A DNA stretch of 8,419 nucleotides from IMG/VR virus record IMGVR_UViG_2663763054_000004. The stretch is one strand, 5' to 3'. This stretch comes from a virus. Its lineage: Duplodnaviria; Heunggongvirae; Uroviricota; Caudoviricetes. Each line of letters starts with the position of its first letter. Position 1 is the first letter of the stretch. Positions 1 to 3,000 of this stretch are shown piece after piece. Made by a program: the position numbers.

Positions 1-3000
1 GGTTAATCCTGCGAATGGCAACACAAAACCGATGTTTGTTGGTCAGGGCGATCAGATATTCATGAACGACGTGTTCCTGAAATGCCTGACGGCCCCCACC
101 ATTACCAGCGGTGGAAATCCATCGGCATTTTCCCTGACTCCGGACGGAAAGCTGACCGCTAAAAATGCGGATATCAGTGGCAGTGTGAATGCGAACGCCG
201 GGACGCTCAACAATGTCACGGTAAATGAAAACTGTACGATTAAGGGCATGCTGGAGGCGACTCAGGTCAGAGGTGACTTCGTTAAAGCTGTATCCAAATC
301 ATTTCCGAAACAGGCTGGTACGTGGGGTAACACGGAAACACCAAACGGGACGGTTACAGTCACCATAAGCGATGATCATAACTTTGACCGCCAGATTATT
401 ATTCCGCCCATTATTTTTAACGGTATAGCGTATGACGATCCGGGGAGCGGAAATAACCCAGGAGGCACGCGATACACGGGTTATGGTTTTGAAGTTCGCA
501 AAAACGGCGTATTAATCGCATCCAGAGAAACTAAAGGTGCCATTCCCGGTAGTTACAGTGCAGTTATTGATATGCCTAGTGGTGGTGGTAGCGTCACTCT
601 GGAGTTTAAGATTTTCCAGAAAGGCAATCAGGGGGCAGGCAATATCACCGACTGTACGGTGATTGTGACCAAAAAAGCGGCTTCCGGCATCAGTATTCGT
701 TGAAATATTTATAACCCCAATAAATGGCGTCAGGAATGACGCCTTTTTTATTGCAGAAAAGCGAGAGGTAATTATGCGTAAAGTTTGTGCAGCCATTTTG
801 TCCGCAGCCATTTGCCTGGCCGTATCCGGTGCGCCTGCATGGGCGTCTGAACATCAGTCCACGCTGAGCGCCGGGTATCTTCAGACCCATACTGATATGC
901 CAGGCAGCGATGACCTGAAGGGCATTAACGTGAAATACCGTTATGAGTTTACGGACACGCTGGGGCTGATTACGTCATTCAGTTATGCCAACGCTGAAGA
1001 TGAGCAAAAAACGCATTACAGCGATACCCGCTGGCATGAGGATTCCGTGCGTAACCGCTGGTTCAGCGTGATGGCGGGGCCGTCTGTGCGCGTGAATGAA
1101 TGGTTCAGCGCGTATGCGATGGCGGGCGTGGCTTACAGCCGTGTGTCGACCTTCTCCGGGGATTATCTCCGCGTAACTGACAACAAGGGGAAAACGCACG
1201 ATGTGCTGACCGGAAGTGATGGCGGTCGCCACAGCAACACGTCTCTGGCGTGGGGGGCTGGCGTGCAGTTTAACCCGACCGAATCCGTGGCCATTGACCT
1301 TGCTTATGAAGGTTCCGGCAGTGGTGACTGGCGCACTGACGGTTTCATCGTGGGTGTCGGTTATAAGTTCTGATTAGCCAGGTAACACAGTGTTATGACT
1401 GCCCGCTGGTTCAGGCGGGCTTTTTGTGGGGTGAATATGGCAGTAAAGATTTCAGGTGTACTGAAAGATGGGGCGGGTAAACCTGTCGTAAATTGTGCGA
1501 TTGAACTGCGGGCCAGAAGAACCAGTCCGACCGTTGTGGCACACGTTGTTGCCACTTGCGTGACGGACAATAACGGTGCTTATGTGATTGAGGCTGAGCC
1601 GGGGTATTACGAGGTTGCGCTTCACTGTAACGGCTGGCAGCCAACCCGTGTCGGGGATATTGATGTGGCACCGACTGATGCACCGGGGACACTGAACGCG
1701 TTTCTGAATGCACCAAAGGATGGTGATTTACGTCCGGAGGTGATGAAGTGTCAGCGCCAGTGATATAAGACGGTAATTCGCCATTTGGATTGTCCGCTCC
1801 ACCCAACATGTTGTTTCCTTAAGGTTCTCACACCAGAAAGGACATCAACATGCTGAGCAGAGAGGACTTTTACATGATAAAGCAAATGCGCCAGCAGGGC
1901 GATCCGGCGTCGGTATCGTTCCGGATTGCCGCACCGGCAGCGCTGTCGCGGATTGAGCTGACGCCGGGCTATTTTCAGATAACCGCCACGCCGCATCTTG
2001 CGGTTTATGATCCGACGGTACAGTTTGAGTTCTGGTTCTCGGAAAAGCGGATTGCGGATATCAGGCAGGTTGAAACCACAGCACGCTATCTTGGCACGGC
2101 GCTGTACTGGATAGCCGCCAGTATCAATATCAAACCGGGCCATGATTATTACTTTTATATCCGCAGTGTGAACACCGTTGGCAAATCGGCATTCGTGGAG
2201 GCTGTTGGTCAGCCGAGTGATGATGCATCCGGTTATCTGGATTTTTTCAAAGGCGAGATAGGGAAAACCCATCTGGCTCAGGAGCTGTGGACGCAGATTG
2301 ATAACGGTCAGCTTGCGCCTGACCTGGCTGAAATCAGGACGTCCATTACGGATGTCAGCAATGAAATCACGCAGACCGTCAATAAGAAACTGGAAGACCA
2401 GAGTGCGGCAATTCAGCAGATACAGAAGGTTCAGGTTGATACAAATAATAACCTGAACAGCATGTGGGCTGTGAAGCTGCAGCAGATGCAGGACGGACGC
2501 CTTTATATCGCGGGTATTGGTGCCGGTATTGAGAACACCCCTGACGGCATGCAGAGTCAGGTGCTGCTGGCGGCGGACAGGATTGCGATGGTTAATCCTG
2601 CGAATGGCAACACAAAACCGATGTTTGTTGGTCAGGGCGATCAGATATTCATGAACGACGTGTTCCTGAAACGCCTGACGGCCCCCACCATTACCAGCGG
2701 TGGAAATCCATCGGCATTTTCCCTGACTCCGGACGGAAAGCTGACCGCTAAAAATGCGGATATCAGTGGCAGTGTGAATGCGAACGCCGGGACGCTCAAC
2801 AATGTCACGGTAAATGAAAACTGTACGATTAAGGGCATGCTGGAGGCGACTCAGGTCAGAGGTGACTTCGTTAAAGCTGTATCCAAATCATTTCCGAAAC
2901 AGGCTGGTACGTGGGGTAACACGGAAACACCAAACGGGACGGTTACAGTCACCATAAGCGATGATCATAACTTTGACCGCCAGATTATTATTCCGCCCAT

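Follow-up and report, generated by a model that had tools for sequence, protein, structure and literature searches.

An IS21-truncated side-fibre gene of a Shigella sonnei prophage and its most likely false joining to the J gene of a second prophage in a draft contig

The stretch of DNA analysed here (the window) makes up the whole of the draft contig CXFM01000188.1 (8419 bp; assembly GCA_001247155.1), and it raises the question why a single contig should contain two different side tail fibre genes (stf): a short open reading frame (ORF) of 108 amino acids (aa) with the N-terminal domain of a fibre protein and, further downstream, an stf gene of full length. A previous reading made from the nucleotide sequence by itself (in the following, the sequence-only reading) had taken the short ORF for the remnant of a second fibre gene that was truncated by recombination, with an 86-nucleotide (nt) junction of unknown origin as the scar, and had thereby implied that a single prophage carries a tandem of fibre modules. 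Our comparison with complete genomes leads to another answer. The short ORF is the stump of an stf gene that was cut by the insertion sequence (IS) IS21 in one lambdoid prophage of Shigella sonnei, and the contig continues from there, through what is most likely a false gap closure, into the J gene of another lambdoid prophage. We label these two S. sonnei prophages, each of which has the genes J-lom-stf, locus A and locus B.

The short ORF starts with the ATG at position 1437 and has the C-terminus ...RPEVMKCQRQ; gene callers also let it begin at the ATG at 1395, which yields a product of 122 aa. Its residues 1–104 match the Pfam family PF08400 (prophage tail fibre N-terminal) with E=1e-36 over profile positions 1–104 of 134, and residues 1–92 align with the N-terminal collar domain of gpStf in the PDB entries 9e7m and 9mgh (E=3e-22). 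Compared to the full-length stf at 3944–7027, the first 12 residues are the same and the identity over 104 aa is 50%. Our results thus agree with the view that the ORF is what remains of the N-terminal part of another stf allele. Full-length fibres with this allele, as the sequence-only reading expected, are also found: nucleotides 1437–1748 are 99.7% identical to intact stf genes in several complete Escherichia coli genomes, for example, to the gene of the 470-aa protein WP_046880233.1 of E. coli CFSAN029787, behind which a DUF4376 gene is located. This match ends at 1748, that is, with codon 104. The shaft and the receptor-binding C-terminal region are absent from the stump, as the ORF ends with residue 108.

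The sequence that follows is IS21. Positions 1749–1901 (153 nt) are 98.2% identical to the left end of intact IS21 elements with istA and istB (one of these reference elements measures ∼2.13 kb and has a 4-bp target duplication, ATGC, on its flanks) and are 100% identical to the IS21 copy at the same site in S. sonnei CP010829.1. The foreign sequence from 1749 on begins with TGTCAGCGCCAGTGATATAAG..., and the left terminal repeat opens at this very position with TGTCAGCGCCAGTG..., including the 5′-TGT start of the element. IS21 begins 15 nt 5′ of the stop codon of the ORF and runs 52 nt past position 1849 into the next ORF, whose ATG at 1850 is the start codon of istA. Up to 1901 the codons 1–17 of istA are present, and the order istA then istB is not found in the window. 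As the window holds these 17 codons only and the copy at locus A lacks istB, we are dealing with a fragment and not with a functional IS21. The observation that nucleotides 1764–1849 match neither stf nor J is correct. Nevertheless, these 86 nt are not of unknown origin but the IS21 leader upstream of istA, and the true foreign segment is 1749–1901. Likewise, the truncation was caused by an IS21 insertion instead of a recombination event, the boundary lying exactly at the terminal repeat. The end of the ORF had been read correctly, except that the residues 105–108 (CQRQ) and the stop codon TGA come from IS21. Since the last four codons and the stop codon are IS21 sequence, the ORF is not a native small gene, and no native small gene of such length was found in intact phages: all 311 phage records that match the stump do so with less than 90% identity, and the 25 of the 311 that were listed match residues 1–104 only, the annotated ones lying under tail fibre protein features. 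The stump is therefore an IS-truncated pseudogene and not a designed small gene. The features in and around the stump are as follows.

1401–1420, forward strand: terminator-like hairpin with a T-run, after lom and 16 nt 5′ of the stump ATG
1437–1748, forward strand: stf codons 1–104 of the locus-A allele, coding for the collar domain and the linker, by match to intact stf
1437–1763, forward strand: the 108-aa ORF, composed of 104 stf codons, four IS21 codons (CQRQ) and TGA
1749–1901, forward strand: first 153 nt of IS21 with the left terminal inverted repeat TGTCAGCGCC..., the istA leader and istA codons 1–17
1850–3292, forward strand: chimeric 480-aa ORF with istA codons 1–17 in frame with codons 700–1165 of the locus-B J
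1892–1901, no strand: 10-nt overlap CAGCAGGGCG, common to istA of IS21 and native J

The interrupted stf gene is part of a widespread S. sonnei locus. Seven draft contigs and one complete genome, CP010829.1 of S. sonnei FORC_011, encode the exact 108-aa product, and the 122-aa reading is recorded in 543 index blocks, of which 13 contain chromosome-sized contigs. In the 10 places listed for the 122-aa reading the context is the same in all 10. The 5′ part of locus A consists of a Q-like gene, IS elements, a tail-gene remnant, M-L-K-I, J (1159 aa) and lom (199 aa); in the 3′ part follow stf′, istA′ (109 aa), a reverse IS3-family element, the rest of istA, a further IS3-family element and the DUF4376 gene, after which a sit/znu-like ABC transporter is located. 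In short form locus A reads Q, IS elements and H-M-L-K-I-J-lom-stf. At the stump the gene order is J-lom-stf′; the assembly-type DUF4376 gene is separated from stf′ by the IS cluster in complete genomes and does not adjoin the stump in the window. In CP010829.1 (positions 8313–11854 of the extracted locus) istA is broken after ∼430 nt by the reverse IS3-family element. The second IS3-family element cuts off istA, so that no IS21 is detectable past the middle of istA, and stf resumes after the IS cluster. Compared to the intact E. coli prophage, istB, the right end of IS21 and 433 bp of stf are lost there; in fact the right end of this IS21 copy is deleted in all genomes seen. The locus-A prophage is defective and its stf is thoroughly inactivated.

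The second part of the question concerns the joint on the right side of the IS21 fragment. Exactly 10 nt, CAGCAGGGCG at 1892–1901, are common to IS21 and native J, and the sequence 5′ of them is found in IS21 only and the sequence 3′ of them in J only. J resumes at codon 700 and contributes its C-terminal 466 residues, and as the reading frame of istA is kept by chance, a fusion ORF of 480 aa results. In the protein collection this fusion product is recorded in this contig only. In its J part it does not differ from the intact 1165-aa J that complete genomes encode, so that an exact look-up would reveal the same joint in any assembly in which the fused gene is called. In addition, J is uninterrupted and devoid of IS21 in all 12 distinct locus-B places inspected, several of which are complete S. 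sonnei chromosomes; at these 12 places J forms a single gene of 1165 or 1151 aa or is split by a frameshift only. Among 5,426 complete E. coli genomes searched for the stf′-IS21-J junction, no place covers at least 80% of the window positions 1380–1960, which indicates on grounds of sequence comparison that neither junction (stf′-IS21 or IS21-J) is a common E. coli arrangement.

To the right of the joint the window is locus B. Positions 1892–8419 have 99.985% identity to locus B in six chromosome-sized S. sonnei records, among them Ss046, 53G, 75/02 and LR213458.1. The locus-B operon comprises V-G-T-H-M-L-K-I, J, lom (160 aa), stf (1027 aa), tfa and IS1. The single mismatch in these 6.5 kb is found at 5712 in the locus-B stf, where the window has G and the six records have A. 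Because of this single-nucleotide polymorphism the exact look-up of the 1027-aa locus-B Stf matched this contig alone, and the context of locus B was obtained via its lom and tfa genes. The truncated Lom of 160 aa stands in 1212 index blocks and is present at every locus-B place listed. In one chromosome locus B is located at 1.27 Mb and locus A at 1.95 Mb, ∼680 kb apart. The implied tandem of two fibre modules in one prophage does not agree with these genomes, in which the stump and the full stf belong to two prophages ∼680 kb apart. The remaining features of the window are the following.

1–703, forward strand: 3′ part of the tail-tip gene J of the locus-B type, present again at window 2590–3292
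774–1373, forward strand: lom, coding for an Ail/Lom outer-membrane beta-barrel protein of 199 aa, with the switch from locus-B to locus-A DNA within the gene
816–871, no strand: 56-nt stretch that is the same in locus A and locus B, where the contig turns from B-type to A-type
3363–3845, forward strand: lom of locus B with an 83-bp deletion and a 160-aa product
3944–7027, forward strand: full-length stf of locus B, 1027 aa, by Pfam and by match to complete genomes
7027–7608, forward strand: tfa, tail fibre assembly chaperone, locus B
8358–8419, forward strand: first 62 nt of an IS1 copy at the contig end, the transposase genes following just 3′ in complete genomes

The part of the window to the left of the stump is a hybrid as well. 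In a three-way alignment of the window with locus A and locus B, positions 1–815 are of locus B and agree with it in complete genomes except at position 83, with 278 consecutive B-type discriminating sites between 94 and 815, and positions 872–1901 are 100% locus A, with 435 A-type sites and zero mismatches. For the called product of 1–703 the Pfam domains Phage_Tail_Tip and Ig_GpJ_C are recorded, and the 199-aa Lom product is identical to the Lom of locus A. The contig thus reads B, A, IS21 (1–153) and again B, the 3′ end of J being present twice, and window 1–815 is a near-perfect repeat of 2590–3404. Position 83 carries the locus-A base T within locus-B sequence and the second copy has C at the corresponding position 2672, a difference of Cys to Arg in the J frame. 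A plain tandem duplication is excluded, as the left copy is B-type in J yet A-type from lom on. We also considered an unequal crossing-over between locus A and locus B. A hybrid with B on the left and A on the right would be of the deletion type and would drop the ∼680 kb in between, and an intact locus B is in the contig; reasoning from the gene arrangement, such a crossing-over is implausible.

How could a sequence that is absent from the finished genomes have entered the contig? The program GapFiller closes a gap once the extensions from both sides overlap by n nucleotides, by default at least 10, and this overlap is tested after each added base (PMC3446322). Because of the check at every base, a false closure at n=10 should show exactly 10 shared bases, and this is the number of nucleotides shared at 1892–1901. 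The same signature is found in sister draft contigs from this accession series. One of them (L007) has a joint with a 10-nt overlap at 1070–1079 which contradicts the complete genome and creates a spurious 150-bp repeat in J, and a second one (L008) passes from locus-A J to locus-B J at a 10-nt overlap at 1470–1479, again contradicting the complete genome. Furthermore, placeholders of N, single or in runs, are present in the same region in L005, L006 and L008. The positions of these N in J are 2170 in L006, 2925 in L008, and 1448, 2063, 3471 and 5627–5633 in L005. L005 also has an ORF of 1919 aa with repeated J segments, for which no Pfam match is recorded.

The high-throughput pipeline of the Sanger Institute combines Velvet, SSPACE and GapFiller 1.11, was applied to 299 S. 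sonnei isolates with a mean of 405 contigs, sorts and renames the contigs by size, and comes with a warning of false joins (PMC5320598). The accession sets beginning with CX.. are the S. sonnei isolates of Holt et al. 2012 (PMC5447701). We infer that the assembly originates from the Sanger pipeline and that GapFiller made the joint. Four marks were used for recognizing a false closure. The overlap equals the default threshold, the joined parts are non-adjacent in finished genomes, and no other assembly has the joint; the fourth mark concerns the reads across the joint. Three of these four marks of a GapFiller false closure are thus shown by the tandem arrangement. Judged by these sequence signatures, the IS21-J joint is most likely a false gap closure, and the 480-aa fusion is then most likely a protein that is absent from the organism, a product of the misjoin.

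Elsewhere, contigs with the stf′::IS21 junction stop 31 or 53 nt into IS21, and the same assembly has a redundant contig of 618 bp over lom-stf′-IS21. The lengths of IS sequence at the contig ends (31 and 53 nt of IS21, 62 nt of IS1) are too inconsistent for deriving the k-mer or read length, and we make no claim on it.

On this basis the following course of events can be suggested. Direct observations are the identities and breakpoints of the segments, an overlap of 10 nt at a joint found nowhere else, and an intact J at all other inspected locus-B places, whereas the part played by GapFiller and the lack of a function of the stump are our proposal. IS21 inserted after codon 104 of the locus-A stf, and its left terminal repeat provides four codons and the stop. 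In the real genomes this IS21 copy has decayed through IS3-family elements and the loss of istB, of the right end and of 433 bp of stf. During assembly the software would have extended the end of the contig base by base, 100 nt further into IS21, and the extension would have halted when its final 10 bases agreed by chance with the contig that comes next in the scaffold, the J gene of locus B, so that the gap was falsely closed.

Some points weigh against this course of events. The misjoin is deduced from sequence signatures and from comparison only, the use of GapFiller at its default setting is presumed for GCA_001247155.1, and a microhomology of 10 nt fits a real illegitimate recombination as well. 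Moreover, two haplotypes of the spacer between lom and stf′ exist in this one assembly, which is not predicted by a single-copy locus A and may point to a second copy. This second haplotype is on the redundant 618-bp contig (CXFM01000339.1), which consists of the 3′ part of lom, the spacer, stf′ and 53 nt of IS21 and aligns with window 1185–1801. It contains a patch of 142 nt that equals locus B, is bounded by stretches of 39 and 48 nt in which A and B are identical, and differs from the window at 1367, 1400 and 1407 and by an additional T after 1420. The haplotype of the patch is found in the CX.. drafts only, and the haplotype of the window is that of complete genomes. The patch could be a hybrid of the assembly graph, a gene-conversion patch, a sign of a second copy or the result of a mixed culture.

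If the contig were correct, a private rearrangement would have to be assumed in which nucleotide 153 of IS21 was joined to codon 700 of J by illegitimate recombination and a homologous exchange took place in lom, resulting in a partial duplication of J-lom-stf. We regard this as improbable. The length of the microhomology is typical of illegitimate joints, IS elements and rearrangements abound in S. sonnei, both loci being surrounded by many IS copies, and two haplotypes of the stf′::IS21 junction would be expected with two copies; it is mainly the two haplotypes which make us reserve a small part of our confidence for a real rearrangement. However, two independent events would be needed to yield a lom hybrid with B on the left and A on the right, and this in addition to a locus B that is intact and a contig that resembles locus A. 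No other assembly has the joint, although the lom of locus B stands in 1212 index blocks. The overlap of exactly 10 nt recurs at two unrelated and obviously spurious joints of sister assemblies and equals the software default, and the near-perfect duplication of window 2590–3404 in 1–815 is what would be expected from reads used twice. The model of the sequence-only reading, that is, one prophage with two fibre genes of which the upstream one was truncated by recombination with an 86-nt scar, agrees with ours in deriving the stump from the N-terminus of a second stf allele. In all other respects the evidence goes against it, as the scar is IS21 and starts exactly at the terminal repeat, the two stf genes sit in different prophages in complete genomes, and at locus A the stump is followed by more IS21 sequence and by a 3′ piece of its own stf. 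We consider this model hardly credible. A false gap closure behind an IS21-truncated stump of locus A therefore stays by far the best explanation of the window.

The stump invites comparison with fibre proteins of known structure. In gpStf of Ur-lambda, the collar domain comprises residues 1–91, a flexible linker follows at 92–101, and residue 102 is the first of the coiled coil (PMC12617516, PDB 9E7M/9MGH); twelve copies of the gpStf collar ring the gpV/gpM junction, and the side fibres are not necessary for plaque formation (PMC12617516). T5-like phages use a separate collar protein (PMC12617516). The stump resembles gpStf of Ur-lambda in its position after J and lom, in the same conserved start of 12 residues and in the PF08400 domain, whereas it keeps 104 residues and is devoid of the coiled-coil shaft, the hinge and the receptor-binding tip. 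To the lambda-like Stf of locus B the stump allele is ∼50% identical. Closest in outline are p132 of T5 and LtfC of DT57C, small collar-only proteins which ring the tail (PMC12617516). These are, however, encoded by dedicated genes and anchor separate fibre proteins, and we liken them by description only; the end of the stump was set by an IS insertion and not by a native stop codon. A further parallel is lambda PaPa, in which a lambdoid stf is also inactivated and viability is kept, the laboratory lambda being without side fibres. There the cause is a frameshift, in contrast to the IS21 insertion and later deletion in an already defective prophage described here. The IS21 part itself has the terminal repeat and the istA start of intact left ends at the identity given above, but comprises 153 nt in the window, and the S. 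sonnei copy at this locus is decayed. As regards the joint, the likeness to false closures by GapFiller/SSPACE consists in the exact 10-nt overlap, the non-adjacent parts, the signature in sister assemblies and the single-N placeholders; such a closure is an artefact of assembly and not a biological system, and the attribution to this software is ours.

Could the stump nevertheless act as a free collar protein, as the sequence-only reading had speculated? In that case the stump would be expressed, would take the sites at the gpV/gpM junction and would lower the loading of side fibres in a dominant-negative manner, the affected tails being those of the locus-B phage or of a superinfecting lambdoid phage in the same cell. 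The cut by IS21 after residue 104 leaves the whole collar domain (1–91) and the linker (92–101) and lies near the boundary of linker and coiled coil, which gives the competition with full Stf for the tail some structural plausibility by analogy. In addition, the region of the native start codon is retained, and the separate collar protein of T5-like phages suggests that a stand-alone fold would be viable. Expression by read-through from lom or by late transcription is conceivable and would speak against a silent stump. Against a free collar protein stands the terminator-like hairpin at 1401–1420, 16 nt upstream of the ATG. A sigma-70-like promoter was sought in window 600–2000 and none was found, which counts against expression, and at locus A IS elements separate the tail genes from the Q gene. 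The stop codon was supplied by the IS sequence by accident, the allele is just 50% identical to the resident full-length Stf, and any effect would be modest, as side fibres are non-essential. The identity of the stump across assemblies is no proof of selection in genomes that are so close. We therefore hold a dominant-negative role of the stump, as well as the named targets, to be very unlikely. With the hairpin upstream, no promoter found, the Q region cut off by IS elements and an accidental stop, the stump is most likely inert. If it were made in S. sonnei upon induction or superinfection and were active, it would represent an accidental dominant-negative protein or a step toward a stand-alone collar protein as in T5-like phages.

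The locus does not bring new biology, as IS-disrupted prophage genes are routine in S. sonnei and the stump is already contained in hundreds of public assemblies, where it is called as a gene; its biological weight is small. A mild structural interest lies in the fact that the stump is a natural collar-only construct, cut almost exactly at the boundary of linker and coiled coil. Of more general use is the caution that a contig suggesting tandem fibre modules is very probably a chimera of two prophages located ∼680 kb apart. An overlap of exactly 10 nt at contradictory joints provides a simple and checkable fingerprint of false closures in these drafts. Such joints can make in-frame fusion ORFs which enter the protein databases, as exemplified by the 480-aa istA′-′J product.

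Some minor observations concern the locus-B part of the window. The deletion of 83 bp in the locus-B lom corresponds to coordinates 1245–1327 of locus A and is flanked by direct repeats CTGGCG. In tfa, the 63 bp at 7151–7213 are absent in Ss046 and 53G, whose tfa is called shorter or not at all, and are kept by the other four chromosome-sized records. The 62 nt of IS1 at the end of the contig are also found at a second IS1 (positions 18299–18360 of the record L023). Between tfa and IS1 lies an inverted repeat of 25 nt, at 7758–7782 and 8088–8112, with 76% complementarity and a distance of 305 nt between its arms.

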